Source of the DNA: Parcubacteria group bacterium
GTDB taxonomy: Bacteria > Patescibacteriota > Minisyncoccia > Moranbacterales > UBA2206
Reading direction: 5' to 3'
Assembly: GCA_041674205.1 (NCBI GenBank)
Contig: JBAYWF010000001.1
Coordinates: 37,449-101,448 of the forward strand
Length of the DNA: 64,000 nucleotides
A model generated the notes under the pieces. The model was not told the origin of the DNA. It saw nothing but the letters and a program-made list of their open reading frames with translations, and did no database searches. This document shows, in pieces, positions 8,954 through 55,354 of the stretch. The translations under genes were made by a program, and so were the position numbers. Numbering within the stretch: position 1 is the first letter of the stretch; every line of letters begins with the position of its first letter.

Positions 8954-10732
8954 ATGGAGAAAATACCCCGATTTATAAAAGAATTTTCTAAAAAAGAATC
9001 TTCAGAAGAAAGAAATGAAGCTGCTCGCGCGATAAAAGAAAAGCGAGCCAATCATTTTGATAAAAAAAATGCTCTGACTGACGAGTCTAAAAAAATAAAG
9101 GAAGTTGTAGGTATTAATGATCAAAAAATGAGTGAGCAACTTGAATTAATTCAGGGCTTAGAAAACACACTTGTCGAATTATCAAATTCTGGACTGAAAA
9201 AATTGATGAATTATTTTCATCTCAAGAAATTGCAGGCCGACATTGCTGTTGGAGAGAAAACATTTGAAGAACTAAAACAAAGACAGGAGGTGGTGAATTT
9301 GCAACTGCAAAAAACATACGTCGAAGTTGAATCGCAAAAAAGGGCACCGGAGCTAGAGGAGTCAAAGGTAATACTACAAAGCTTTTATAAAGGACAAAAT
9401 GAAAAATGGGCGGAAAGTGATTATTTAAAAGAGGATATAAAAAAATATTTCTCTGAAGAACATCTTGCCTCTCTCTCTATCGAGGACTATGCTTTGTTGT
9501 TGCGACGGTTTCCAGGTGAGATGGTGACACATGTGACTCGTCAGGGTATTCGAGATCATGTTGGACATATATATCACACTGCGGGCGATGGCGCTTATTC
9601 TAATGGTTTTATGAGAATGGTTGATGATGGAAGACTTCGTTCGCCACTGGGTCTATGCTTGACAGAAGTCGAGAAGGAACAATCTATTGCCAAATATTTG
9701 AATCTCGCTAAATATAAAGACAAAAACGAAGCACTTGATGTTTTAAATACAATAACGACTGAGAAACAAGGCGAGCCCGGAAGTTTTTCAGATAGAATGG
9801 CAATTCATTTTGCTACCGAAGAAGTAGCTGACTGTTATTATGGTTCTGAGAAGGGTAACGAAATCTTTATTATATTTCCTTCGGCACATGTGGCCTCTCA
9901 ATATTATTTTAGTGGACAAAGTGGAAGCTTGAATCGTTCGGGTGGAGGATATTGGAACGATCAGTGGGTTTGGGCAAATGAAGAGAGAGGGATGGATTTA
10001 AATGCTGGGCTAGTGTTTATACCCAAAGAAGTGCGGGTAAATAGAATAACTGGCTCGAGATACGAACTTGATGAAAATAAAACACCCAAACAAAATCGAT
10101 TATTCCATTCTATTATTGAAAAATTTACGTGCCTACCTGATTTTCATTTAATTGCGAGGCAAATAATGGAAATCACAGGAAAGTTTACTCAAGAATTAAA
10201 TATATCTGATATTTCGCCAAGTGATCAAGAATTATATAAAAAATTAAAACCGTTAATTGATTCACTTGAAAAATGCGGTATTCTAGATACCAGGATGCAA
10301 CTTTTATTACTCGACTATCGCAATATTTGTTCACTTGATATATACAAAGATGTGGAAGAGCGAGGCATAAGAGAGCCAATTCATACGATGGATGTCGTAA
10401 TAGGTAGTGTTCTTAAAAAGGGCGGCATTTTATTGTCGGAAGCGAAAGATACTTGTAGCTCTAAAGAATTCTGGGAGTCCTATTTTGCCAAAAATGTAGG
10501 GAAAAAACCAAATAAAATTGTGTACTATGAAGGTAGTAGTCCGACATATGCTTTCTTGAAATGGAGGAAGGAGCAAAATATAACTAAAAAAACTAAAGAC
10601 GAAAATATTGGTTTTCCAGATCATCATATTCAACGTGATCATGCGCAAGCTATTGCTGGGATGGATCGATTTAGGTTGCTTGCTGAGGAAGTGATTGAAA
10701 AATATTTTGCAAAAAAGAAGAGAAAAAAATAA
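8954..10732 (+). CDS. Large hypothetical protein, coiled-coil N-terminal half plus C-terminal globular domain (paralog B)
   Basis: 592 aa ORF in tandem with paralog A, K/E-rich coiled-coil N-terminus, lysine-rich tail, no recognisable domain. Confidence 0.6.
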   Translation: MEKIPRFIKEFSKKESSEERNEAARAIKEKRANHFDKKNALTDESKKIKEVVGINDQKMSEQLELIQGLENTLVELSNSGLKKLMNYFHLKKLQADIAVGEKTFEELKQRQEVVNLQLQKTYVEVESQKRAPELEESKVILQSFYKGQNEKWAESDYLKEDIKKYFSEEHLASLSIEDYALLLRRFPGEMVTHVTRQGIRDHVGHIYHTAGDGAYSNGFMRMVDDGRLRSPLGLCLTEVEKEQSIAKYLNLAKYKDKNEALDVLNTITTEKQGEPGSFSDRMAIHFATEEVADCYYGSEKGNEIFIIFPSAHVASQYYFSGQSGSLNRSGGGYWNDQWVWANEERGMDLNAGLVFIPKEVRVNRITGSRYELDENKTPKQNRLFHSIIEKFTCLPDFHLIARQIMEITGKFTQELNISDISPSDQELYKKLKPLIDSLEKCGILDTRMQLLLLDYRNICSLDIYKDVEERGIREPIHTMDVVIGSVLKKGGILLSEAKDTCSSKEFWESYFAKNVGKKPNKIVYYEGSSPTYAFLKWRKEQNITKKTKDENIGFPDHHIQRDHAQAIAGMDRFRLLAEEVIEKYFAKKKRKK

Positions 10733-12181: not shown

Positions 12182-14761
12182 TCAGGGAATTGAAACGATG
12201 TTGGTATGGATCGTGATGTTCGTACTTTTTGACTTGTCGTTTTTATCGACGGCGACAGCCTTGATTTCCAGGTCGGACGTCTTTTTGTCATCAGGTATGG
12301 AATAAGTGTAGCTTAAAGATGAGTCATCCTTGGAAGATACTTCGTCACCGTCGATATAGAGGGTTATCTTGTCTATATCGAAGGCGGAGGAAGCTGCGGC
12401 TTTGATCGTGACAGTGTTGGAAGTTACGGTTGCTCCGTTGGAGGGAGAGGTTATTTTTACTTTCGGAGTGATGTCGGAAAAATCATCAGATTCGCATTTT
12501 TTGGTAGGCGCGGGGTCATTGGAAAGGTCCTTGTCTTTCTCGGCATATTTTTGGACGGCCTTTTCCCAATTTTTAAATTGCGGATCGTCTTCCGGGTCTT
12601 TAGGGTAGTCTCCGCGCGGGTCATCCTTTTTGACATACCACAGGATGGAATGGGCAGAAAAGAATTTTTTCTTAGTTTTAAGACTGTCCGGGCAAGCGTC
12701 GGTGGCTAGGCAGTAATCATCGTTTTTATCAGGTATTTCGCAGACCTCGATTTTTTCTTCCGGGTCGAGTTTGCCGTTCAAGATCGGCTTGCCGGCATCT
12801 TCCGGTTCGTATTTCGGAAATTGCTCCACATTGTAGTTTTTTAAGGCGCCATCCATAAATTTCCGCCAAATCGGAGCGGCTACGAAAATTCCATCCGCAC
12901 CTTTGGCCATCGTGGAATTGTCGTTGTTGCCCGCCCAAACACCGACTACGAGAGACGGGGTATATCCCATCGCCCAACCGTCACGCCATTCATTGGTAGT
13001 TCCGGTTTTGGCGGCTACGGATCGGTCGGTGAAATTGAAGGGATTGTTGGTTCCAAAAACCGGAGCGCGCAATGAGTTGGTGGACATCACGTAATCAAGC
13101 ATAGACACATATTTTTCGTCGATGACTCTTTGGCCCGGGTCATTTTGGTATTCCTCGAGGATTTTTCCGGAGGAATCGGTTATTTTCAGGATGGCGGTCT
13201 TGTCATGGTGGATTCCTCCGGTTGCCAGGGAACCATAGGCATTCGTATGGTCAAGTAGTGTCACTTCGCCGCCGCCCAATACCAATGAGAGTCCATAATC
13301 GAAAGACTTGTCCAGAGTGGTTATGCCAAGAGCCTTGGCGGTCGTGATGGAATCCTGGACTCCGGCTAGATAGAGCGTTTGGACAGCGGGAACGTTCAGT
13401 GACATCGCCAGCGCATCTTTCATTTGGAGTAGCCCGTGGTTTTTCCCGTCATAGTTTTTCGGATTATAGCTTTTTCCCGAATCGGTTGAAAAATCGGTGT
13501 CTACGTCCCACATCTGGGTTTCTGGAGTGTAGCCTTTTTTGAAAGCTGTCAGATAGACATATGGCTTGAAAGATGATCCAGGCTGGCGGTTCCGGATAGT
13601 GACATTGACTTGGCCGTCGATGGATTTGTCGAAATAATCCTTGCTGCCTACCATCGCCAATATTTGTCCGGTACGCGGATCCATCGCGACCATCGCGGCA
13701 TTCTCAGCTCCGTATTTTGCCGTATTGGACGTCGCGCCTTCTTTGACCGCTTGTTCGGCTAATTGTTGTTTATCCCAATCGAGAGTGGTGTAAACCTTGA
13801 GGCCACCCTGTTCCAATGCTTGCTGGCCATAGGTTTTTTCCAGATATTCCTTGATGTACATCACGAAGTGCGGTGCGGAAATATTTTCCGAAGAGGGCCG
13901 TATTTTTGCCAGGATGTCGACCTCTTTGGCCGCCGCGGCTTGTTCCTGGGAAATATAGCCTAATTTTTCCATTTGGGTCAGCGCATACACCTGTCTGCCT
14001 CGCAAGGCGTCGGAGTTATTCCCATAAGGGGAATAGTAAGAGGGTGCTTGGGGCAGGGCAGCTAAAAGGGCCGCTTCGTCAAGGGAAAGTTCTGAGGCGT
14101 GTTTGCCGAAAAAAGTTTGCGCGGCCGCTTCGATGCCATAGGCGTTGGAGCCGTAGGGGATTTCATTGAGGTACATTGCTAATATTTCATCCTTGGAAAA
14201 TTTAAGCTCTATTTCGATAGCCAGAATCAGTTCCTTGATCTTGCGGGAAAGCGATCTTTCGTCGGTAAGGATGGAATTTTTAACGAATTGCTGGGTAATC
14301 GTCGAGCCGCCCCGTCCGCCTCCTCGGCGCAAGACGTTTGAAATTACGGCATTGGCCAAACCGCGCACATCAAATCCAGGATGGTGGTAGAAGTTCTGGT
14401 CTTCCAGGGAGATGGTGGCATATTTGATGGCGTCCGGCATATCCGTGAATTGGATTTGCGTTCTCTTTTCTTCGCCGTGGATGTCATAGAGCAGGTGGTC
14501 GCCGGTGCGGTCGTAAATCTTGGTTGATTCCGTCACGACCCGTTTGCTGATTCCGTTGGCACTGGGCAAGTCTTTGGCGAAATAGGCGAAAATGCCTAAA
14601 ACCAGAAGCGCGGAAAAGCCCGCCGCATAGGCGCTGATTTTGCCAGCCATCCGCCAGCGGTTTTTGCTGGAGGCATATTTGAAATTTCTTAGGGGGGAGA
14701 ATATCTTGTCCATAAAATATGATATTTTAAAATATGGCCAAATAAGGCCTTTTGCAACCAT
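12182..14761 (-). CDS. Bifunctional class A penicillin-binding protein (PBP1A; transglycosylase + transpeptidase) with C-terminal Ig-like extension
   Basis: GT51 motif EDQNFYHHPGFDVRG, transpeptidase SSFKP and KTGT motifs, N-terminal TM anchor. True start may be the internal ATG (MDKIFSPL, about 14713). Confidence 0.9.
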   Translation of the reverse strand: MVAKGLIWPYFKISYFMDKIFSPLRNFKYASSKNRWRMAGKISAYAAGFSALLVLGIFAYFAKDLPSANGISKRVVTESTKIYDRTGDHLLYDIHGEEKRTQIQFTDMPDAIKYATISLEDQNFYHHPGFDVRGLANAVISNVLRRGGGRGGSTITQQFVKNSILTDERSLSRKIKELILAIEIELKFSKDEILAMYLNEIPYGSNAYGIEAAAQTFFGKHASELSLDEAALLAALPQAPSYYSPYGNNSDALRGRQVYALTQMEKLGYISQEQAAAAKEVDILAKIRPSSENISAPHFVMYIKEYLEKTYGQQALEQGGLKVYTTLDWDKQQLAEQAVKEGATSNTAKYGAENAAMVAMDPRTGQILAMVGSKDYFDKSIDGQVNVTIRNRQPGSSFKPYVYLTAFKKGYTPETQMWDVDTDFSTDSGKSYNPKNYDGKNHGLLQMKDALAMSLNVPAVQTLYLAGVQDSITTAKALGITTLDKSFDYGLSLVLGGGEVTLLDHTNAYGSLATGGIHHDKTAILKITDSSGKILEEYQNDPGQRVIDEKYVSMLDYVMSTNSLRAPVFGTNNPFNFTDRSVAAKTGTTNEWRDGWAMGYTPSLVVGVWAGNNDNSTMAKGADGIFVAAPIWRKFMDGALKNYNVEQFPKYEPEDAGKPILNGKLDPEEKIEVCEIPDKNDDYCLATDACPDSLKTKKKFFSAHSILWYVKKDDPRGDYPKDPEDDPQFKNWEKAVQKYAEKDKDLSNDPAPTKKCESDDFSDITPKVKITSPSNGATVTSNTVTIKAAASSAFDIDKITLYIDGDEVSSKDDSSLSYTYSIPDDKKTSDLEIKAVAVDKNDKSKSTNITIHTNIVSIP

Positions 14762-14992
14762 AAGCTGGATGCTGTGAAGTCAGTTAGTATTCTACGATAA
14801 TTCCGGGTTTTTATCAAGCCCGCCGGCAGGGATGTTTTCTGGTGTCTGAATCTTGCAGGCATCTTTGATTTTATCCAAAAACTTCAAAGTTTATGAGGTT
14901 CAGACTAAAATCAAGCAATTAAAGCGATATATTTTTCCAATAAAAAATGAGCTTGTGAAAGCCCATTGATATTGCGGATAAAAAAACTAACA

Positions 14993-15937
14993 CTAAGCGT
15001 CCGCCAAACGCTCAAGGGAATCGAGCACTGACTCTATGAAAATGGGAGAATTTTTCATTTTTTCCGACGGGAAACCGATTTGGTCATTCAACTCAAAAAC
15101 AAAAAGTTCGCTCTTGTTCTGGATGCCAAGGTCGATGGAATAGATTGGACGGTTGAATTTTTTATCGATGCGCGCTTGTATTTTTTTCACGCTATCAAGG
15201 ATGGATGCCGGGATATTTTCAAGTGGGATTTCCCTGATCGATCCGCCTTGGGCGACGTTGGCCAGAAGCGATCCTTCTTTGGGCGCGCGTACATGGCTCA
15301 AGACGATTTTGCCGTCCACGATTATTATCCGCAGATCATGGTGTCCGTCGATGATTCCGGGGATTCCGGCGGACGTGTCGACGAATTCTTGCAAAATATA
15401 TTCGCGGCCGTTTTTGATTTCCTCGCGCATTATTTTTTCCGGATAATCAATCACGATTCCTTGGCCACACATCCCGTTGGCAGGCTTGAGCACGGTCAGT
15501 GCGGACGGAGAAAACGATTCCAATTGCCGCGATAGGCTGGCCTTATCTTTGATCCGTGCGCTTTTAGGCATAAAATCGCCGATAAATTCCTGGGTCGCGT
15601 TCTTATTGTTGCACAATCTTTTGAAACGGATGTTGTTTAAAACTTTGGAGCTGATGTCTTCAATCGGGAAAGACATCCCGCCGCTCCGATCGAAAACGGC
15701 GTCCGCTTGTATGTCTTCCTTTTCCGGTTCAAAGAACTCCCCGGTGTAGTGATAGGCGCCGGAAAAAGTCAGCAGTCCCGTTTGTGTGTTTTTCCCGCTG
15801 GCGATATACATATCGAAACCTCTTTTCAGACCGCGTTTAAAAAAGTCGTGATAGACGGCTCTTTTTGGGCCGAAGGTGGAAAAAGGATCGCTTTCCATCT
15901 TGCGCCTGCTGAAATACATGACTATTTTTTTTCGCAT
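14993..15937 (-). CDS. ATP-grasp superfamily amidoligase (RimK / glutathione-synthetase-like), paralog 4 of the cluster
   Basis: 314 aa. ATP-grasp C-terminal half: LKPANGMCGQGIVI, ILQEFVD, HDLRIIIVDGKIV, FVFELNDQIGFP. 16-nt overlap with the upstream gene. Confidence 0.7.
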   Translation of the reverse strand: MRKKIVMYFSRRKMESDPFSTFGPKRAVYHDFFKRGLKRGFDMYIASGKNTQTGLLTFSGAYHYTGEFFEPEKEDIQADAVFDRSGGMSFPIEDISSKVLNNIRFKRLCNNKNATQEFIGDFMPKSARIKDKASLSRQLESFSPSALTVLKPANGMCGQGIVIDYPEKIMREEIKNGREYILQEFVDTSAGIPGIIDGHHDLRIIIVDGKIVLSHVRAPKEGSLLANVAQGGSIREIPLENIPASILDSVKKIQARIDKKFNRPIYSIDLGIQNKSELFVFELNDQIGFPSEKMKNSPIFIESVLDSLERLADA

Positions 15938-16833
15938 CCGGTTAAATATTCAGCTAATTTTTTAATTTCAGGTGAGATCTTGGTATCTAGCGTGAGAGTC
16001 GGACAGCTATTAACCTCGAATATTACGGGACTTCCATCCGGCCGTTCGATGATGTCCACGCCGGCGACTTGGATATGCGTCGTTCGGGCTGCCAAAACAG
16101 CTTCTTTTTTAAGGTGGCTGCCGACCGTGGAGATATCTACGAATTCTTCAGTCGCTCCCAGATGCACGTTGTTCCGGAAAGCTTCTTTTTCAGAGCGGAT
16201 TTTTTTCTCAGTTACGGCCACTTTGCTTCCGGTCACAAGGATCCGATATTCAAAATCATTGGGGATGAATTCTTGCAGGAAAATTTCCTTGCGGTCATCC
16301 TGGCTGGATCTTTCCAAAATGATTTTTTCCAGCTCGCTGATATTCTTGGCCAAAAAAACGCCCGCCCCTTGCGAAGAGTTGCATTCCTTGATCACGATCG
16401 GCAGCTTCAGATATGCTATGGCATTGCGCAGATGTTTTTTCGGATAGGAGCCCGCGAAATAAGTTTTAGGGATGGAGATTCCTGCCGATGCCAGACGGAA
16501 CATCTGGATTATCTTGGCGGCATCGGACGCGTCCTTGTTTTGTTCATGGTAGCGGTCGATCAGATTGACTCCGGACTCTTTCGATACGTGGGCCAGCATA
16601 TGGGCGACACCTCGGTTCCTGCCAACCTTCCTGATATAAATAGTGCTCCAAGCCGTCACCGGTTTCCCGCAAATCGACAATCCGATCTTGTTTTTTTCTA
16701 TTTGAATTTCGGTCTCTTCCAAACTGGAAACGGAAAAATCCACTCCTTTCCGGGCGAGTTCGGCGCCGGTCAGGCGTAAAAATTTTTTCATTTTCGGTCC
16801 GGTCTTCTTCTTGTTTTTTAATATCAGTAACAT
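15922..16833 (-). CDS. RimK-like ATP-grasp (alpha-L-glutamate ligase family)
   Basis: 303 aa. LPIVIKECNSSQGAGVFL, LQEFIPNDFEYRILVTGSKV, EVNSCPTL, typical of the RimK/LysX group. Confidence 0.75.
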   Translation of the reverse strand: MLLILKNKKKTGPKMKKFLRLTGAELARKGVDFSVSSLEETEIQIEKNKIGLSICGKPVTAWSTIYIRKVGRNRGVAHMLAHVSKESGVNLIDRYHEQNKDASDAAKIIQMFRLASAGISIPKTYFAGSYPKKHLRNAIAYLKLPIVIKECNSSQGAGVFLAKNISELEKIILERSSQDDRKEIFLQEFIPNDFEYRILVTGSKVAVTEKKIRSEKEAFRNNVHLGATEEFVDISTVGSHLKKEAVLAARTTHIQVAGVDIIERPDGSPVIFEVNSCPTLTLDTKISPEIKKLAEYLTGCEKK

Positions 16834-16926
16834 AAGCGTTTCCGGTTACTTATTATAAATTATAAAAACGGCTGGCAAATGGGGCGCTTGGCAAAATATC
16901 CGATGGATTTTTCAGGGTGGCAGCGT

Positions 16927-17904
16927 TTATGGGATCTGCTTGTCATCGGAAACCGTCGTATTCAATTTCAGGATGAAATTTATGATATCCTTGATGACAT
17001 TCCTGGATCTTCCGTGAGTCGGGTTGTAGTGGATATAAATGTCGGGCTTCCCGTTTATTTCCAGGATTCCGAATGTTTGGTCGGCGGGGTCCTTGGATAT
17101 ATTTTCGCAGATTATATCGATGCCGGCAAGATAATAGCCGACCGCATCCGCGGCCTTGACGCAAATGGAAATAATCGCCTCATTGACTGAATCCGTGGCA
17201 TCCCGGGTTTCTCCGCCTTCAGCTAAGGAAGAGCTTTTTTTAATGGAAACGATTTTTCCGGTATCCAGCACTGAATCAAGTGAAAACCCTTGTTCTGCTA
17301 AAATCCTTATCAGGGCCTGGTCAATCGGGGTTTTCCGGCGGGTATGCTTCTGTTTTTCCTGGATAAGGGCGGCTATCGTGGACTTCCCGTCGCCGATGAT
17401 TCTTGGCGGAATCATTTCCAACGCCCCGATAACCTTTTTATCCAGGATGAGGACGCGGTATTCTTTGCCAAAAATCATTTCTTGGGCGATAAGCGACCTG
17501 AAATTTAAAATCTCTTTGGTTATGATGGCCTTGGCTTCCTGCGCGTTTTTTATGTAAGGGAAAATGCCTTGGCTGTTTGAACCGGCGGAATCCTTGATGA
17601 TTATGGGAAATTTGAGGTTGCTTAATTTTTTTTCAACCTCTTCGGGTGTGAAATTTTTTCTGAAAAAAAAGACCGTGGTCGGCGTGGGAAGCGACTGGCG
17701 CCGGAGTAGCGTATAAGTTAAGTCTTTATAGGCCGTTGCGCCAGCGATGCTGATAAAATTTTTGGCGATTCTGAATTTTCTCGTGATAAGAAAAGTCTTG
17801 CCACGCACGTGGATATAATAACAGCGCCTTTCAGGGATGACTTCCTCGAATGTCCCTCCCATTTCTTCGACGACCTTCCGGATCAATAAAGTGTTTTTTA
17901 TCAT
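16927..17904 (-). CDS. ATP-grasp enzyme resembling the N-terminal ATP-grasp domain of cyanophycin synthetase
   Basis: 325 aa. GKEYRVLILDKKVIGALEMIPPRIIGDGKSTIAALI, then SLAEGGETRDATDSV and ILEINGKPDIYIH, the pattern of CphA-type ATP-grasp domains. 4-nt start/stop overlap with the upstream gene. Confidence 0.7.
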   Translation of the reverse strand: MIKNTLLIRKVVEEMGGTFEEVIPERRCYYIHVRGKTFLITRKFRIAKNFISIAGATAYKDLTYTLLRRQSLPTPTTVFFFRKNFTPEEVEKKLSNLKFPIIIKDSAGSNSQGIFPYIKNAQEAKAIITKEILNFRSLIAQEMIFGKEYRVLILDKKVIGALEMIPPRIIGDGKSTIAALIQEKQKHTRRKTPIDQALIRILAEQGFSLDSVLDTGKIVSIKKSSSLAEGGETRDATDSVNEAIISICVKAADAVGYYLAGIDIICENISKDPADQTFGILEINGKPDIYIHYNPTHGRSRNVIKDIINFILKLNTTVSDDKQIP

Positions 17905-19295
17905 TTTTTCACGTCGATTAAGAATTTGTTCAAATTTATTTTCCCGATAATCACCGGATATTTCATATGCGACCGGTCGACCAGCGTTATTTTTGTGGGA
18001 ATGGTTATCGTGTCCATCGTAAATTCGATGTTGATCATCGGGCGGTAAGTGTAGCCGTTGGATGATTTTACGGGAATGGTGGAGATGATATCGGGAACGT
18101 CCTTGTAAATTTCCCAGCGTTCTTTTTTATCCAATTTTTTCAAATTTTCATAAGGCATTTTTAATTTTTCAAATTCCTCGATTGTTTTTTCAAAGCCCAG
18201 CGCTTTAGCCAGACCATCATCGATGGACGACCAATCGGCGCCCGTGTCAATCTTGGCCTCCACTTCTATCGTCTTGCCGTCTTTTCCGACCAATTTGATT
18301 TTTTCCACGGTGCCGATGACTTTACGGCCGGAAATTTCCTCGACTTCTTCTTCGATTTCCCCTCCAAACAGATCCATACCCATCCGCACTCCCCGGGCGA
18401 TCGTTTTTATTTTGAGTCCGGAAACGCGCCTGAGCCTTTCCGCCAAGCCGGCCAGGTTGGCGACTTGGATGGAAAGTCCCGGGCGGGCATTGAGTTCCAA
18501 GATGACCGGTCCGTGGTTTTTATCGATAGCCACATCCACACCTAGGAATCCCAGGTTGGAAATTTCTTGTGATTTCGAAGCCAGGAGCAGGATATCTTTC
18601 CAATGAGGGATGCGGATGCCGCTAACAGGGAAATTCGTGCCGGGAATTTTTTCAATAAACTTATTTTTCCCCTGGATGGCTGTCGTAGTCACTCCGGTGG
18701 CCATATCGATTCCGACGCCGACGGCGCCTTGTTGCAAATTGGCTTTGCCTCCGGATTCCCGGGTGGGTAGGCGCAGCATCGCCATCACCGGAACCTTGTT
18801 GAAGACGATGACGCGGATATCAGGGATGCCTTTGTAGGAATAGGGTTTGAATAATTTCAAAAGTTGCAGACGCTCTTCAAAAAAAGCGATATCCGGCGTA
18901 TTGGACAAGGAAAAAGAGCCGTCCAAGATGTTGCGGATGTGGCTGCGCAAATCTTCAATAGTGATGAGCGAGCGGTCGGCTTTGACCCACGCGTCATCCC
19001 GTCCTTTCTTTTTCCCATAAACCACGACAATGCCTTCGCCGCCAAAACCGCGGTTGGGTTTCAGGGCGAAACTTGAAGGCAGGGATTGCCAATCAAAATT
19101 TTCTAAATCTTCAACCGTTTTTATTTTAGCGATCAAGCTCGGCACCGCTATGGCGTTTTTTTTAAGGACTCTTTTGCTGAGCAGTTTGTCGTCAGCCAGC
19201 CGTTTGGCCCGGAGCCGATTGTATGGGCGAATGAACTCAAGATTCCTTGAGTTCATACCGAGAAGCTTTTGGCTGTTTTTGAAAAATTCAAACAT
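17901..19295 (-). CDS. Fusion protein: alpha-L-glutamate-ligase-related ATP-grasp (sugar-transfer-associated type) + C-terminal retropepsin-like aspartic peptidase (DUF785, so-called ATP-dependent zinc protease)
   Basis: 464 aa. N-terminal 300 aa resemble RimK-related ATP-grasp (GFGGEGIVVV, GFLGVDVAIDKNHGPVILELNARPGL). C-terminal about 130 aa carry the aspartic peptidase signature KIDTGADWSSID. Confidence 0.75.
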   Translation of the reverse strand: MFEFFKNSQKLLGMNSRNLEFIRPYNRLRAKRLADDKLLSKRVLKKNAIAVPSLIAKIKTVEDLENFDWQSLPSSFALKPNRGFGGEGIVVVYGKKKGRDDAWVKADRSLITIEDLRSHIRNILDGSFSLSNTPDIAFFEERLQLLKLFKPYSYKGIPDIRVIVFNKVPVMAMLRLPTRESGGKANLQQGAVGVGIDMATGVTTTAIQGKNKFIEKIPGTNFPVSGIRIPHWKDILLLASKSQEISNLGFLGVDVAIDKNHGPVILELNARPGLSIQVANLAGLAERLRRVSGLKIKTIARGVRMGMDLFGGEIEEEVEEISGRKVIGTVEKIKLVGKDGKTIEVEAKIDTGADWSSIDDGLAKALGFEKTIEEFEKLKMPYENLKKLDKKERWEIYKDVPDIISTIPVKSSNGYTYRPMINIEFTMDTITIPTKITLVDRSHMKYPVIIGKINLNKFLIDVKK

Positions 19296-19298
19296 CGG

Positions 19299-19955
19299 CT
19301 AGATTTTTTTAATAATATCTTTGAAACGGATATATTCGCTTACCCGCAATCCTGTCCAGCGGCCGATTATGACATTGAAAGGAATGGTAAGCAGGATGAC
19401 CCAAGGGTAGGCGACCAAAAGCCGTATCAGCGCTTCCCAGCTGGCGATATAGAAACCTGCTACGGAAATGACCAAGGTTTCAAACGCCAAGATGAGAGCG
19501 GTCTTATTTCCTTTTTCAATTTGCACGGCGACGAATTTCTCTACCAGCGTGATCATAATGAGAATCGGGAAGATTGAGACGGAAGCCAGTCCGGTCCTGT
19601 GCAGGTTGCCGCCAAAAACAAGCAATAGCAAGATTAAAACGGCAACGATGGTTAGCATTATGGCTACGCGCGGCAAATAGAGGAGCCGGAAGGGTTTCAA
19701 AATGAAGCGCATCAGCATCCCGATGAAAATGACCGCCAAAAAAATCGCCACGCCGTAGCGTAGGCCGTTGGTAGCCAGAAAGGCGAAAGTGATGATAAGC
19801 GGCGTGTAGATGCCAAAGGCTTTGATGCCGACGACCTGGCGCAAGAAAGCGATCAGTGTCGCGATGATCGGCAGCATCAGGATTAGGATGATTGTTTCAA
19901 AAGGCACGCCCTCAATAAGGAAAAAACGGATTATGGGGCTGATATTGAGATCCAT
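19299..19955 (-). CDS. Polytopic (about 7TM) membrane protein of the type found with RimK-like ATP-grasp operons
   Basis: 218 aa almost entirely hydrophobic helices. First gene of the minus-strand operon, 3 nt from the next gene. Confidence 0.65.
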   Translation of the reverse strand: MDLNISPIIRFFLIEGVPFETIILILMLPIIATLIAFLRQVVGIKAFGIYTPLIITFAFLATNGLRYGVAIFLAVIFIGMLMRFILKPFRLLYLPRVAIMLTIVAVLILLLLVFGGNLHRTGLASVSIFPILIMITLVEKFVAVQIEKGNKTALILAFETLVISVAGFYIASWEALIRLLVAYPWVILLTIPFNVIIGRWTGLRVSEYIRFKDIIKKI

Positions 19956-19958
19956 TGA

Positions 19959-19986
19959 ATTTCTAATTTCTAATTTCTAATTTCTA
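19959..19986 (-). repeat. Tandem heptamer repeat (ATTTCTA x4 on plus; TAGAAAT x4 on the coding strand) abutting the start codon of the 7TM gene
   Basis: Four perfect 7-nt units, 3 nt upstream of the ATG at 19955. A 16-nt direct repeat TTAAAAATTATAAAAC x2 lies at about 20010-20051. Confidence 0.9.
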
Positions 19987-20043
19987 ACCAATGTCGGGAT
20001 GACAAAAAATTTAAAAATTATAAAACAAAAACGTATTTAAAAA

Positions 20044-20577
20044 TTATAAAACCCGGTTTAACTTCCGGCTATTGATATGGCAAATGGCGATTGCTAGGGC
20101 ATCGGCCGTATCATCCGGCTTAGGCACGGCTTTTAGGCCTAAAATGCTTTTGACCATCAGTTGGACTTGCTTTTTCTCCGCTTTGCCATAACCCGTAACG
20201 GCTTGCTTCACTTGCAGGGGTGTGTAGCTAGCTATCTTGACACCTTTTTGCTCCAGTGTCAAGAGGATGCCCCCTCTGGATTGGCCGACGCTGATTATAG
20301 TCTTTTTGTTTTTAAAGAAGAAGAGCTGTTCCACGGCCGCTTCGCTGGGATGGTACTTTTCAATGATGCTGGCAAGGTCTTGGGATATCTCAGCTAATCG
20401 ATTTTCTTCTGAGTTGCCTTTGTCGGTGCTGATATGTCCAAAAGCCACCGGAACAAGCGTTCCGGCATTTTCTTCAAGAATGGCCCAGCCTACGGTCGCC
20501 GTGCCGGGATCGATTCCGAGCACCCGCAACCCGGCATCGGCAGGTCGTGATTTGATTTCCCCCATTTTTAATTTCAC
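20044..20577 (-). CDS. ruvC: Holliday junction resolvase RuvC
   Basis: VLGIDPGTATVGWAIL N-terminal catalytic Asp, C-terminal DTADALAIAICH. Confidence 0.85.
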   Translation of the reverse strand: MKLKMGEIKSRPADAGLRVLGIDPGTATVGWAILEENAGTLVPVAFGHISTDKGNSEENRLAEISQDLASIIEKYHPSEAAVEQLFFFKNKKTIISVGQSRGGILLTLEQKGVKIASYTPLQVKQAVTGYGKAEKKQVQLMVKSILGLKAVPKPDDTADALAIAICHINSRKLNRVL

Positions 20578-31600: not shown

Positions 31601-31689
31601 TTGGACAGGACTTTGGCGGTGTCGGTTTCTTTTTGGGAAGCCCCGACGGTTCCCAGGGAAGATGAATGGTCTCTTAATATTTTTATCAT
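28654..31689 (-). CDS. Tandem-duplicated, fused type II/IV secretion-system ATPase (two complete GspE/PilB modules in one 1011-aa protein)
   Basis: N-terminal T2SE_Nter-like domain, then two full modules each with Walker A GPTGSGKTTTLYS, Asp box, Walker B VGEIRD, His box GHLVLSTIHTN and a tetra-Cys motif (CxC...CxKC). The two halves are also similar at DNA level (about 29100-29240 vs 30440-30580). Confidence 0.85.
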   Translation of the reverse strand: MIKILRDHSSSLGTVGASQKETDTAKVLSNLRHQSEEEQAAAFAAALGLPYLDTNLVPISTESLKLLSEEDARLYNVAIIQKVGKKATIVSPDPIQLKTIGYLKNLSETRGWDTQIFVISQYNMGKVLEKYKKIVFTDILSQLSVNLTGDDLEKFDEYLKDLITLKQRINELPTTQVLNIVMGGAYKLGASDIHIEPQEKEFRLRYRIDGVLHDVAFLPLNIFKTIISRIKMMSGMKINLRDIAQDGTFEVNIEAKKIAIRVSIIPGSFGESVVMRLLDPSSIQTDVESLGLQGLAYEELQKQISAPNGMILTTGPTGSGKTTTLYSFINKLNDPETKIITIEDPIEYEVAGISQTQIERSRGYTFANGLRAIVRQDPDVILVGEIRDEETADIAVNSALTGHLVLSTIHTNNAIGTIPRLIEMGVKPSLIVPAVNAIIGQRLVRKLCDCKEEYVPANESLASIKKILSIISPKAKVEVPKEITKLYRPKGCPKCNNLGYKGRIGIFEVLTLNEDLEGLILNLAGETELTVAALEAGMITMLQDGILKALSGITSIDEVKRVTGEGDFLEGVYEKLMSQSLGRNILVDEDSFAKAQENISDFKKLQAAIYLAKVTDINKIIFAAASLLGVGDIHIEPGQSDVKFRFRIDGILQTVVALPLNEYPAILGEIKILSGVKSQVREGVVDSRFTIRFADEIADIKEKSLDVRISIILGGYGETVVMRLLSKASQELDINKLGIREQNKKKILHEISKPNGVFLNTGPTGSGKTTTLYSLLNILNKPEVKIITVEDPIEYQIEGLLQTPVNDKEGYTFPTALRSLLRQNPDIMMIGEIRDNETAEVAVQAALTGHLVLSTIHTNNAAGAVQRMLNMDVSPSDIASGVNAFMAQRLVRKLCSCKEKNVPTFEEKEKITMVIKTISPKSGVEIPPIEKICKPKGCEKCNYLGYKGRTTVSEVFVIDKDIQALITQGAITSELADKAIENGMLTMAQDGVLKVLEGETTLEEIERVTDL

Positions 31690-31763
31690 AAGGATGCGGC
31701 TTCAGTTTTTGTTTATTTTACTTCATTTTACTTCATTTTCCGCTATCCTACAAATCGCAGGCA

Positions 31764-49779: not shown

Positions 49780-51072
49780 ATGAAAAAACTTATTCCCCAG
49801 CCGATCAAGAATATCTACCATCTGCTCCAAGCCGTCTTGGCGAATTTGCGGTTCGGTTTCCCGACCAGAAGATTGAAAGTCATCGGTGTCACCGGCACGG
49901 ACGGCAAAACCACCACCTGCCAGATGGTCACTAGAGTTTTGGAGGAGGCGGGAAAAAAAGTCGCAATGGCTTCGACCATCAATTTCCGCATCGATGGCGA
50001 AGAGGAAAAAAACTTGTCCCATTTCACGACCCTTTCGGCTTTTGCGGTGCAGCGGTTCGCAAAAAAAGCAGCGGCTGCCGGTTGCGAGTATCTGGTTCTG
50101 GAAACATCTTCCCATTCCCTTGATCAATACCGGGTGTGGGGAATAAATTATAAGACGGCAGTCATCACGAATGTGACGCGCGAACATTTGGACTATCACA
50201 AGACGATGGAAAGATACCGCCGGGCGAAAGCGAAGCTTTTTCAAAACGCTGGAATCGCGATCGTGAATCTGGATATGGAAAAACCGGAAGAGTATCTTGA
50301 TTGCAAAGCGGAAAATATTTTCGGATACGGTCTAAAAATCCTAAATCCTAAATTTCAAATCCTAAATAAATTCAAAATTCAAAATCAAAATTTCAAAACT
50401 ATTATTGCGGAAAATGTCGAGTTGGGAATTGATAAGTCTGCATTCGCAGTTGATGGACAAAATTTAACTTTAAATTTAATCGGGGATTTCAATATTGAAA
50501 ATGCGCTGGCGGCGATCAGCGTGGGAGTTTCGGAAAATATTTCTCTCGATATTTGCGCCAGGGCTTTGGCAAAAATCATGGGCGTGCCGGGAAGGATGGA
50601 ATATGTGCCGAACGATAAAAATCTGAATATTTTGGTGGATTTCGCGTTGACGCCGATCGCTTTGGAAAAATTGTATTCGTTGCTGGTAAGAATAAAGAAA
50701 CCGCAGGCGCGCGTCATCGCCGTCTTCGGTTCCTGCGGCGAGCGGGATCGCGGCAAACGGCCGATCATCGGGGAAATAGTTTCCCGTTACGCGGATTTCG
50801 TGATCATTACTAATGACGAGCCCTATCACGAAGAGCCGATGCAAATTATCAATGAGATCGTGGCAGGCATTGAAGATAAAAAAGAAAACGAAAACTTTTG
50901 GATAATTCCCGATCGTCGCGCGGCCATCGCCAAGGCGCTGCAACTCGCCCAGCCTGATGACATAATCGCTGTGACCGGCATGGGGGCGGAAGAATCGATG
51001 ATAGTGGGGGATGAAAAAATTCCGTGGAACGACCGGCAGGTGATTTTGGAGGAGCTGGGAAGGATACAATAA
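49780..51072 (+). CDS. Mur ligase family protein (MurE-like) with an in-frame low-complexity insertion
   Basis: VIGVTGTDGKTTT P-loop, Mur ligase middle and C-terminal domains. Insertion LKILNPKFQILNKFKIQNQNFK is encoded by the AT-rich repeats at 50337-50405. Confidence 0.8.
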   Translation: MKKLIPQPIKNIYHLLQAVLANLRFGFPTRRLKVIGVTGTDGKTTTCQMVTRVLEEAGKKVAMASTINFRIDGEEEKNLSHFTTLSAFAVQRFAKKAAAAGCEYLVLETSSHSLDQYRVWGINYKTAVITNVTREHLDYHKTMERYRRAKAKLFQNAGIAIVNLDMEKPEEYLDCKAENIFGYGLKILNPKFQILNKFKIQNQNFKTIIAENVELGIDKSAFAVDGQNLTLNLIGDFNIENALAAISVGVSENISLDICARALAKIMGVPGRMEYVPNDKNLNILVDFALTPIALEKLYSLLVRIKKPQARVIAVFGSCGERDRGKRPIIGEIVSRYADFVIITNDEPYHEEPMQIINEIVAGIEDKKENENFWIIPDRRAAIAKALQLAQPDDIIAVTGMGAEESMIVGDEKIPWNDRQVILEELGRIQ

Positions 51073-54401: not shown

Positions 54402-54451
54402 TCATTTATGGTGTTTAGAACAGTTATAACACTTAGAACAAATAGAACATT

Positions 54452-55354
54452 ATGACAATCTATACGCAAGCGGATAAAAATACGCGCCTGACTTGGGTTT
54501 ATATCACGGGTTTTTTGGTTTTCGTAATAGGGGTGGGTTATGTCTTCGCGGGAGCGATGCGGAACAGCCTGATTCTCTATATCGCAGTGGCTTTTTCCAT
54601 CGGGATGAGCTTCGTTTCCTATTGGTGGAGTGACAAGATCGTCCTGGCGATGAGCAACGCCAAGGAAGTGACGCACGACAACGCCCGTGAAATCTACCAT
54701 CTGGTGGAAAACCTTTGCATCACCGCAGGATTGCCGGTGCCCAAGATTTATATTATTGAAGATAGCGCGCCTAACGCTTTCGCGACCGGTCGCGATCCGG
54801 AACACGGAGTGATTTGTTTGACGACCGGCATCATCGCAAAATTAGAAAAAACTGAATTGGAAGGCGTGATCGCCCATGAATTGTCGCATATCGGCAATCG
54901 GGATATCTTGCTTTCAACGGTCGTGGTGGTTTTGGTGGGCTTTGTCACTCTATTGGCGGACTGGTTCCGCAATTGGACGTTTTGGGGCGGCGGCCGGAAT
55001 CGCGACAATAACAATGAGGGTGGCGGGCAATTGCAACTTATCTTGTTCATCTTGGCGATCGTGCTTTCTATCTTGGCGCCGATTGCCGCCATCTTGATGC
55101 AGATGGCGATTTCCCGGAAAAGGGAATTTTTAGCTGATGCTTCCGCGGCACTTCTGACGCGCTATCCGGAAGGCCTGGCACGGGCGTTGGAAAAAATTTC
55201 TGCCGATAAAGAACCGCTGGAAGCCGCCAATCGGGCGACGGCGCATCTCTACATCACCAATCCTTTCAAGGGCAAAAAAGTCTCGTCGCTTTTTATGACC
55301 CATCCGCCGATTGAAGAAAGAATCGCGGCTTTGCGGGGGATAAATATCAAATAG
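54452..55354 (+). CDS. htpX: Zinc metalloprotease HtpX (M48 family)
   Basis: HEXXH as HELSHIGNRD, four TM helices, C-terminal MTHPPIEERI. Confidence 0.9.
   Translation: MTIYTQADKNTRLTWVYITGFLVFVIGVGYVFAGAMRNSLILYIAVAFSIGMSFVSYWWSDKIVLAMSNAKEVTHDNAREIYHLVENLCITAGLPVPKIYIIEDSAPNAFATGRDPEHGVICLTTGIIAKLEKTELEGVIAHELSHIGNRDILLSTVVVVLVGFVTLLADWFRNWTFWGGGRNRDNNNEGGGQLQLILFILAIVLSILAPIAAILMQMAISRKREFLADASAALLTRYPEGLARALEKISADKEPLEAANRATAHLYITNPFKGKKVSSLFMTHPPIEERIAALRGINIK

Follow-up and report, generated by a model that had tools for sequence, protein, structure and literature searches.

A cluster of five genes in the 64,000-nt stretch of DNA analyzed here (the window), taken from a Parcubacteria group bacterium of the Candidate Phyla Radiation (CPR), probably encodes a membrane-associated machine that synthesizes and trims an acidic peptide carrying lineage-specific extra residues or sugars; we put this reading at roughly 55%. 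Its core pairs a seven-transmembrane (7TM) protein with a glutamate-ligase-like ATP-grasp enzyme that is fused to a retropepsin-like peptidase. A species-varying set of ligases follows this Rlo/Rim-like core, which suggests that a variable acidic peptide is built at the membrane. The first-pass annotation had placed five co-directional genes here, and all five open reading frames (ORFs) were recovered on the minus strand: g1 (19299 to 19955; 218 aa), g2 (17901 to 19295; 464 aa), g3 (16927 to 17904; 325 aa), g4 (15922 to 16833; 303 aa), and g5 (14993 to 15937; 314 aa). When genes were called independently on the source contig, g5 was instead started at M7 (15919), giving a protein of 308 aa. 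The genes had been described as overlapping or abutting, which holds for g1 and g2 (3 nt apart), for g2 and g3 (4-nt overlap, with the g3 start lying over the g2 stop), and for g4 and g5 (16-nt overlap, or a 2-nt gap if g5 starts at M7), but not for g3 and g4, which are 93 nt apart. On the source contig, which is a metagenome contig of 322 kb in ENA, the genes for YebC and RuvC lie directly upstream of g1, as annotated.

The g2 product had been annotated as an ATP-grasp enzyme with a C-terminal aspartic peptidase domain, and profile searches bore this out for both domains. Residues 9 to 293 (18417 to 19271, minus strand) matched PF14397 with 232.9 bits (cut-off 31.4), identifying a putative RloC-type, alpha-L-glutamate-ligase-like ATP-grasp domain. 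The match to the RimK family model TIGR00768 was 43.8 bits, below the cut-off of 143.4. An AlphaFold2 model of the g2 monomer (predicted local distance difference test [pLDDT] score of 81.5) showed two domains, each well folded, with a disordered, Glu-rich linker between them. When this model was compared with the PDB using Foldseek, the best match was RimK, a poly-alpha-L-glutamate synthetase (5zct), and structures of Ddl, LysX, and CphA1 were matched as well.

The second domain (residues 322 to 461; 17913 to 18332, minus strand) is a predicted retropepsin-like aspartic peptidase of the RimB/RloA family. Residues 327 to 461 matched PF05618 with 43.6 bits (cut-off 27), the RloA3 model NF052264 matched with 45 bits, and the NCBIfam models of RloA, RloA2, and RimB also matched. 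The IDTGAD signature lies at residues 349 to 354, making D350 the predicted catalytic residue, and its DTGA core was invariant in 36 genome orthologs and 80 database homologs. In addition, the domain aligned with the RloA structure 9g58 (E = 2e-6), one of two RloA structures deposited with the description of the Pseudomonas aeruginosa system (PMC12239564). In this alignment, K348, D350, R418, and R441 of g2 correspond to chain residues K26, D28, R94, and R117, which with the mature-chain offset of 20 residues are K46, D48, R114, and R137 of RloA. These four RloA residues coordinate polyglutamate, and activity depends on R114 and R137 both in vitro and in vivo (PMC12239564). All four g2 positions were invariant or at least 90% conserved across orthologs and homologs. 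Since ATP-grasp matches filled the Foldseek list for the whole g2 model, the peptidase assignment rests on the sequence profiles and the 9g58 alignment. The peptidase has neither a signal peptide nor a gene of its own; because it is fused behind a cytoplasmic ligase in the same chain, it is predicted to be cytoplasmic.

The linker between the two domains contains the Glu-rich motif FGGEIEEEVEEISG (18327 to 18368, minus strand; residues 310 to 323) and is predicted to be disordered, with residues 313 to 328 below a pLDDT of 50. Moranbacteria keep the motif, but fused relatives at a greater distance have lost it, and nowhere does it hold eight or more consecutive Glu residues. We considered autoprocessing at this linker and set it aside as a low-probability idea, given that the motif is confined to close relatives and lacks the run of at least eight Glu that RloA needs.

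The partner of this fusion, g1, had been called a polytopic membrane protein, and it matched PF14402 (7TM_transglut) with 109 bits (cut-off 25). The RloB model NF052267 was matched only at positions 313 to 507 of 508 (90 bits; cut-off 900); g1 thus corresponds to the C-terminal 7TM half of RloB and has no transglutaminase domain. Seven hydrophobic transmembrane helices were predicted, with a positive-charge bias pointing to an external N terminus and an internal C terminus with an Arg/Lys-rich tail, and the AlphaFold2 model was all-helical (pLDDT of 75). Across the 36 orthologs, 58 of the 218 residues were invariant. The C terminus of g1 was also considered as an acceptor for ligation and rejected: the tail (GKWTGLR..EY.RF) is conserved, but its last residues vary and are not acidic.

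The three genes that follow g2 all appear to encode ATP-grasp enzymes as well. The g3 product had been described as an ATP-grasp like the N domain of cyanophycin synthetase, with an IIGDGKSTI motif. The likeness to cyanophycin synthetase stands: g3 matched TIGR02068 with 179 bits at model positions 212 to 474 only (cut-off 850) and CphA1 in the PDB (7wac; E = 4e-31), and IIGDGKSTI aligned with HVVGNGKSTI of CphA1. Matches to GshAB (125 bits) and N-acetylglutaminylglutamine synthetase (91 bits) were weaker. Thus, g3 is best described from its sequence as a stand-alone ATP-grasp resembling the cyanophycin synthetase G domain and the C-terminal domain of GshAB. As annotated, g4 is RimK-like (PF08443, 92 bits; PDB RimK 7qys, E = 2e-14), although its score against TIGR00768 (95.4 bits, below the cut-off of 143.4) indicates that it is probably not a RimK ortholog. 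The assignment of g5 to the ATP-grasp enzymes likewise held (PF08443, 41.5 bits; GSH-S_ATP, 33 bits). A sequence search of the PDB with g5 returned no match, and database homologs of g5 numbered 231 at E ≤ 1e-5, compared to more than 6,000 for g2 at E ≤ 1e-10; g5 is therefore classed provisionally as a divergent GshB/RimK/YheCD-type ATP-grasp of a narrowly distributed family.

Pfam ATP-grasp families were matched above cut-off by all four ligases, g2 to g5, and their E-x-N motifs (ELN, EIN, EVN, and ELN) and Lys motifs were kept across orthologs. The first-pass annotation was therefore correct that there are four ATP-grasp enzymes, but not that they are paralogs in any recent sense: because identity among them was at most 30%, over partial stretches, they represent four distinct and distant subfamilies.

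To see how this arrangement varies, we relied on a scan of species-representative genomes with g2 as the query, which gave 37 loci, all in Moranbacteria-type metagenome-assembled genomes (MAGs). Database homologs of g2 carry the annotations Candidatus Moranbacteria, Moraniibacteriota, or Parcubacteria. Wherever the contig allowed, the order yebC-ruvC-7TM-fusion-[cassette]-PBP1A was kept across the 37 loci, where PBP1A is a class A penicillin-binding protein gene, and g1 and g2 were adjacent and co-directional in every one. Identity to the window proteins ranged from 57 to 97% for g1 and from 61 to 98% for g2. What lies between g2 and PBP1A, by contrast, varied widely. This gap measured 1.1 to 5.5 kb and held one to five genes; clustering of these genes at 38% identity gave about 35 groups. 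In the 33 loci that reach the PBP1A gene, 25 different cassette architectures occurred. Each of these complete loci had one or more additional ATP-grasp genes after g2, and ATP-grasp enzymes, including TTL-like ones, made up 68 of the 93 cassette genes. The others encoded MATCAP/DUF1704-type metallopeptidases (TIGR02421-related), DUF3541, GNAT, and YdjC proteins, and glycosyltransferases of families GT2, GT4, and GT8. All credible cassette ORFs lay on the operon strand, and the single opposite-strand ORF (in L021) was an artefact of ORF calling. The earlier view of a system expanded to four ligases is thus accurate for the window, but no fixed expansion is involved: 25 or more cassette variants occur, and the four ligases are just one of them.

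The combination of g3-, g4-, and g5-type ligases recurred in L009 and L016, was partly present in L032, and was reordered in L006. The closest genome locus, L009, was colinear with the window at 85 to 87% nucleotide identity but has an insertion of 1.9 kb that separates g5 from PBP1A (12307 to 14198 in L009; 14887 to 14931 in the window). This insertion contains an ORF of 651 aa with a zinc-peptidase-like motif (GHEIAH, of the form HExxH) and no Pfam or NCBIfam match; its similarity to the MATCAP-like cassette proteins was weak (pairwise E = 3e-4). Nine of the MAGs that carry a Moranbacteria-type locus (L008, L020, L022, L025 to L027, L029, L034, and L037; g2 identity, 61 to 76%) are titled "uncultured Bdellovibrionales bacterium," and this name is probably wrong.

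To look beyond Moranbacteria, 1.8 billion representatives were searched exhaustively and without profiles, which yielded 435 clusters at E ≤ 1e-30. A length of about 800 aa was common among the matches. Ten long g2 relatives were scanned, and among them were ligase-retropepsin fusions extended at the C terminus by a MATCAP domain (three proteins of about 790 to 920 aa), a YdjC domain, or a second ATP-grasp domain. These fusions tie the functions of the cassette to the core without recourse to gene order. Two distant loci, in an unclassified CPR bacterium (L040) and a Kerfeldbacteria MAG (L042), had the order yebC-ruvC-7TM-fusion-accessory genes-tyrS-PBP1A, so that g1 and g2 homologs were again adjacent and co-directional, with a tyrosyl-tRNA synthetase gene between the cassette and PBP1A. 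Their 7TM partners (L040, 1870 to 3420; L042, 6418 to 8001) were 516 to 527 aa long and carried N-terminal PKD domains. Since PKD domains in these distant CPR bacteria occupy the place of the transglutaminase-like domain in Proteobacteria, the extracellular module of the 7TM family appears to be interchangeable or dispensable. In a precomputed Pfam table, the fused protein of L042 had no PF05618 match. A separate small gene after it (9407 to 9883) had a faint RimB-like match in the same table and was followed by a GalT-like gene.

Two experimentally studied systems provide the closest comparisons. The P. aeruginosa genes rloA-rloB-rloC, described in 2025 as the retropepsin-like osmotic stress tolerance (Rlo) system, encode a secreted retropepsin, a protein joining an inactive transglutaminase domain to a 7TM domain, and a cytoplasmic ATP-grasp (PMC12239564). 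RloA cleaves runs of at least eight Glu, and deletion of rloB or rloC suppresses the defects of an rloA1-3 triple mutant (PMC12239564), which implies that the material removed by the peptidase is produced by the RloC ligase together with the 7TM protein. The window shares with this system the clustered, co-directional set of a PF14397 ATP-grasp close to the TIGR02291 type, a PF14402 7TM protein, and a PF05618 retropepsin, and the g2 peptidase keeps both the DTG motif and the K/R residues that coordinate polyglutamate. However, the 7TM protein of the window lacks the N-terminal inactive transglutaminase domain (218 aa versus about 508), and its peptidase, joined to the C terminus of the ligase, is predicted to be cytoplasmic, whereas RloA is a stand-alone, periplasmic protein secreted by means of a signal peptide. 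Furthermore, the core is followed by one to five additional genes for ligases or modifying enzymes. The host is a CPR bacterium, whereas 96% of RloB matches were reported from Proteobacteria (PMC12239564).

The other comparison is with RimB and RimK. In Pseudomonas fluorescens, the cytoplasmic retropepsin RimB trims the polyglutamate tails made by RimK and stimulates synthesis of free poly-alpha-glutamate; it cleaves polyglutamate and raises RimK ATPase activity fourfold, and polyglutamate was detected only when both proteins were present (PMC11957791). A RimB-RimK hybrid (RimBK), also described in 2025, is proteolytically active (PMC11957791). Like RimBK of Desulfotalea psychrophila, g2 couples a cytoplasmic retropepsin physically to a putative ATP-grasp glutamate ligase in one polypeptide, but the RimB part is N-terminal in the hybrid (PMC11957791) and the peptidase is C-terminal in g2. 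The g2 ligase also appears to be of the RloC type and scores below the RimK family cut-off, a 7TM partner is always present, and no link to ribosomal protein S6 is evident. As judged from sequence, the core therefore appears to be a variant that joins an Rlo-type ligase and 7TM protein with a Rim-like, cytoplasmic, coupled peptidase in the opposite fusion order. The accessory cassette has no counterpart in either report (PMC12239564, PMC11957791). The likeness of g3 to CphA1 spans the whole ATP-grasp G domain (CphA1 residues ~212 to 474, including GxGKSTI); g3 lacks the N domain and the Mur-ligase-like M domain, and because it consists of a G domain only, it could not make an Asp-Arg polymer alone.

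The first-pass annotation had called the system uncharacterized, a view partly overtaken by the 2025 descriptions of RloABC and the RimB-RimK hybrid. Iyer and colleagues reportedly noted in 2009 a neighborhood of the same three components, ATP-grasp, 7TM-transglutaminase, and DUF785 genes, and predicted membrane peptide synthesis or modification, which we treat as a lead only. Literature searches on ATP-grasp or RimK proteins in Moranbacteria or Patescibacteria, and on MATCAP together with ATP-grasp enzymes, turned up no earlier account of this arrangement in CPR bacteria.

Taken together, the domain, synteny, and motif evidence fits the membrane-coupled, multi-step amidoligase pathway that had been proposed; the profile results named in advance as refuting it, unrelated folds for the four ligase ORFs or a C-terminal g2 domain of another kind, did not occur. 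In such a pathway, the putative RloC-type ATP-grasp of g2 would consume ATP to extend either a free amino acid or the C-terminal carboxylate of a peptide with acidic residues, of which alpha-linked glutamate is the likeliest, so that a short acidic chain would be built at the cytoplasmic face of the membrane. The retropepsin domain, acting as a homodimer, the form in which the active site of this family lies at the subunit interface, would bind this chain in its Lys/Arg-lined channel, trim it or set its length, and probably stimulate the ligase, as RimB does RimK. As the obligatory membrane partner, g1 would anchor the enzyme and probably pass the product or its acceptor across the membrane. 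Each of g3, g4, and g5 would then add, or prime the chain with, a further residue, giving a lineage-specific product; in other species, the same slot would be filled by other ligases, MATCAP-type carboxypeptidases, GNAT or YdjC proteins, or glycosyltransferases.

Several points weigh against this interpretation. For the CPR members, a glutamate substrate, the sequence of reactions, export, and what the final product would be are all inferred from the genes. The g2 ligase scored 295.9 bits against TIGR02291, just below the cut-off of 314.2. A TATAAT-like sequence lies within the 93-nt gap between g3 and g4, so that co-transcription of g4 and g5 with g1 to g3 can at most be presumed. The Moranbacteria loci were found through g2, and g2-centered synteny therefore covers only genomes that have g2. 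Export is less well supported than in Pseudomonas because the peptidase is cytoplasmic here but secreted in the Rlo system (PMC12239564).

Other explanations account for parts of the same evidence. The strongest competitor, which we nevertheless consider unlikely, is intracellular protein tagging: Glu or other residues would be placed on the C terminus of a cytoplasmic protein, as RimK does on S6, with the retropepsin and MATCAP proteins acting as erasers and the 7TM protein regulating or localizing the enzymes. The fusion of the peptidase to a cytoplasmic ligase without a signal peptide recalls the cytoplasmic RimB-RimK pair, and the MATCAP carboxypeptidases and TTL-like ATP-grasps of the cassettes are reminiscent of the paired writers and erasers of tubulin tails. 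Yet the g2 ligase looks RloC-type and not like a member of the RimK family (44 bits versus a TIGR00768 cut-off of 143), no target protein is evident, with the C-terminal residue of g1 not conserved, and an envelope product would better suit both the invariable 7TM partner and the glycosyltransferase and YdjC genes that appear in some cassettes. Alternatively, the ligases might extend the stem peptide or cross-bridge of peptidoglycan precursors at the membrane, which would produce a species-specific wall and explain the adjacent PBP gene. ATP-grasp ligases do build cross-bridges, for example the D-aspartate ligase of enterococci. PBP1A directly followed the cassette in all 33 Moranbacteria loci whose contigs reach it and lay nearby in the two distant CPR loci, and rlo mutants of P. 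aeruginosa have cell-shape, beta-lactam-sensitivity, and hypo-osmotic phenotypes that led the authors to discuss a peptidoglycan link (PMC12239564). Given those cell-wall-like phenotypes, the neighboring PBP1A gene is suggestive, but this is weak evidence: the gene has its own promoter-like site past terminator-like hairpins, is inverted in L019, and is separated from the cassette by tyrS in L040 and L042, so that the link is one of synteny and not of operon membership, and synteny in small CPR genomes can last without a functional link. We also know of no wall-precursor pathway that needs polyglutamate-type channel residues, which the g2 peptidase keeps. We therefore regard cell-wall diversification as doubtful, and less probable than protein tagging.

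Slightly less probable again is a soluble osmolyte or storage peptide in the cytoplasm (a dipeptide like N-acetylglutaminylglutamine amide [NAGGN], a glutathione-like tripeptide, or a cyanophycin-like polymer), which the 7TM protein would sense or release. In its favor, the Rlo system has been linked to tolerance of osmotic stress (PMC12239564), g3 and its relatives C1 and C8 matched models of cyanophycin synthetase, GshAB, and N-acetylglutaminylglutamine synthetase, GNAT domains occur in some cassettes, and in one protein a GNAT domain is fused to a g5-type ligase. Against this, g3 has neither the N nor the M domain of cyanophycin synthetase (179 bits versus a cut-off of 850), the locus has no amidotransferase or gamma-glutamylcysteine ligase partner, and such extreme variation of the ligase set between species would be unusual for a housekeeping osmolyte. 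Finally, ATP-grasp macrocyclases mature graspetides, a type of ribosomally synthesized and post-translationally modified peptide, and g4 weakly matched the maturase model TIGR04187. With a score of 20.6 bits against a cut-off of 350, far better matches of all four enzymes to RimK/CphA/GshB-type carboxylate-amine ligases, and no conserved short ORF for a precursor within the operon or next to it (a search of the operon gaps for small precursor-peptide ORFs gave no credible candidate), this explanation was already very unlikely and we give it almost no weight.

A bolder reading is that the cassette encodes a species-specific peptide or glycopeptide of the cell surface or wall, built residue by residue by stand-alone ATP-grasps on an Rlo-type core and handed to the envelope beside PBP1A. 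We hold this reading to be improbable as it stands, about on a par with protein tagging. If true, it would be a peptide counterpart of O-antigen and teichoic-acid diversity in ultra-small, probably host-attached bacteria, and it would also point to the product of RloBC in Pseudomonas and Vibrio. The occurrence of 25 architectures in 33 species is the pattern usual for surface-structure loci and offers a testable lead on surface differences among uncultivated bacteria. Moranbacteria fall within a group whose genomes are known to be very small; the retention of three to seven genes at one conserved locus in such a genome argues for an important role. In pathogens, Rlo and Rim systems affect cell shape and biofilm formation as well as tolerance of osmotic stress and sensitivity to antibiotics. 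With its ligase and peptidase in a single polypeptide and no extracellular domain on the 7TM protein, the CPR version offers a simpler setting in which to find the Rlo product and test the role of the 7TM protein. What makes the locus interesting is its fused minimal core, the constancy of its position in CPR genomes, and most of all the variable ligase cassette.

Downstream of g5, two terminator-like hairpins (14946 to 15015, minus strand; pattern matches from a consensus scan) lie at and just past the g5 stop and likely mark the end of the operon. The PBP1A gene, encoding predicted transglycosylase and transpeptidase domains (12182 to 14761, minus strand; Pfam Transgly, Transpeptidase, and Big_7), is preceded by a promoter-like site, TTGATA-17-TAGAAT, at 14817 to 14789 (10 of 12 matches; pattern match only). 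We regard this gene as conserved downstream context whose membership in the system may at most be presumed. An Rfam scan of 14500 to 20400 (E ≤ 1) found no known RNA element.

Upstream of g1, a predicted promoter region (20009 to 20052, minus strand) contains an 18-nt perfect direct repeat, GTTTTATAATTTTTAAAT, whose copies (20052 to 20035 and 20026 to 20009) lie between ruvC and g1 at a spacing of 26 nt and each include a TATAAT hexamer. The first copy overlaps the ruvC stop codon. A TATAAT sequence was also found about 10 nt ahead of the g1 start in several related loci. In seven loci (L024, L026 to L029, L036, and L037), a conserved GAGTATAAT lies ~5 to 10 nt upstream of where the 7TM gene is predicted to start, so near that the transcript would be leaderless or nearly so in those species.

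The heptamer array reported at the g1 start codon is real, with 4.3 perfect copies of TTAGAAA at 19958 to 19987 in the 5' leader (minus strand; Tandem Repeats Finder score of 60, 100% matches), ending 2 nt before the ATG. The accompanying absence of a Shine-Dalgarno sequence carries no significance and was rejected as a special feature of g1: GGAG, GAGG, or AGGA occurred within ~20 nt upstream of the start for only 5 of the 42 long ORFs in the window, leaving 37 without one, and Shine-Dalgarno use thus appears to be rare in the source organism. The doubled heptamer unit was commoner than in any of 100 shuffles. The array leaves the g1 leader unusually unstructured, with poorer folding than in every one of 200 shuffles (z = +2.13). 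At the corresponding position, L009, L023, and L008 have arrays built from different short A/T-rich units. Within the window, an array of a TTAGAACAC-like unit (3.9 copies; 54415 to 54449) abuts the ATG at 54452, and ATTTTACTTC (2.5 copies; 31715 to 31739) lies ~25 nt ahead of a minus-strand start at 31689. Since similar arrays precede these two unrelated genes, the heptamer array looks like a general style of translation initiation region in these genomes and unlike something specific to the operon; the three window arrays suggest a recurrent, repeat-built, unstructured leader in this one. In an independent assembly (L039; Logan SRR6484325), the g2 protein was identical to that of the window, and the contig starts (positions 1 to 32) within the heptamer array, where the assembly may have broken at the repeat. 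A degenerate 7/21-nt tandem repeat of AAATCCT and AAATTCA units was also present at 50335 to 50398 of the window (Tandem Repeats Finder score of 66), within the ORF at 49780 to 51072.

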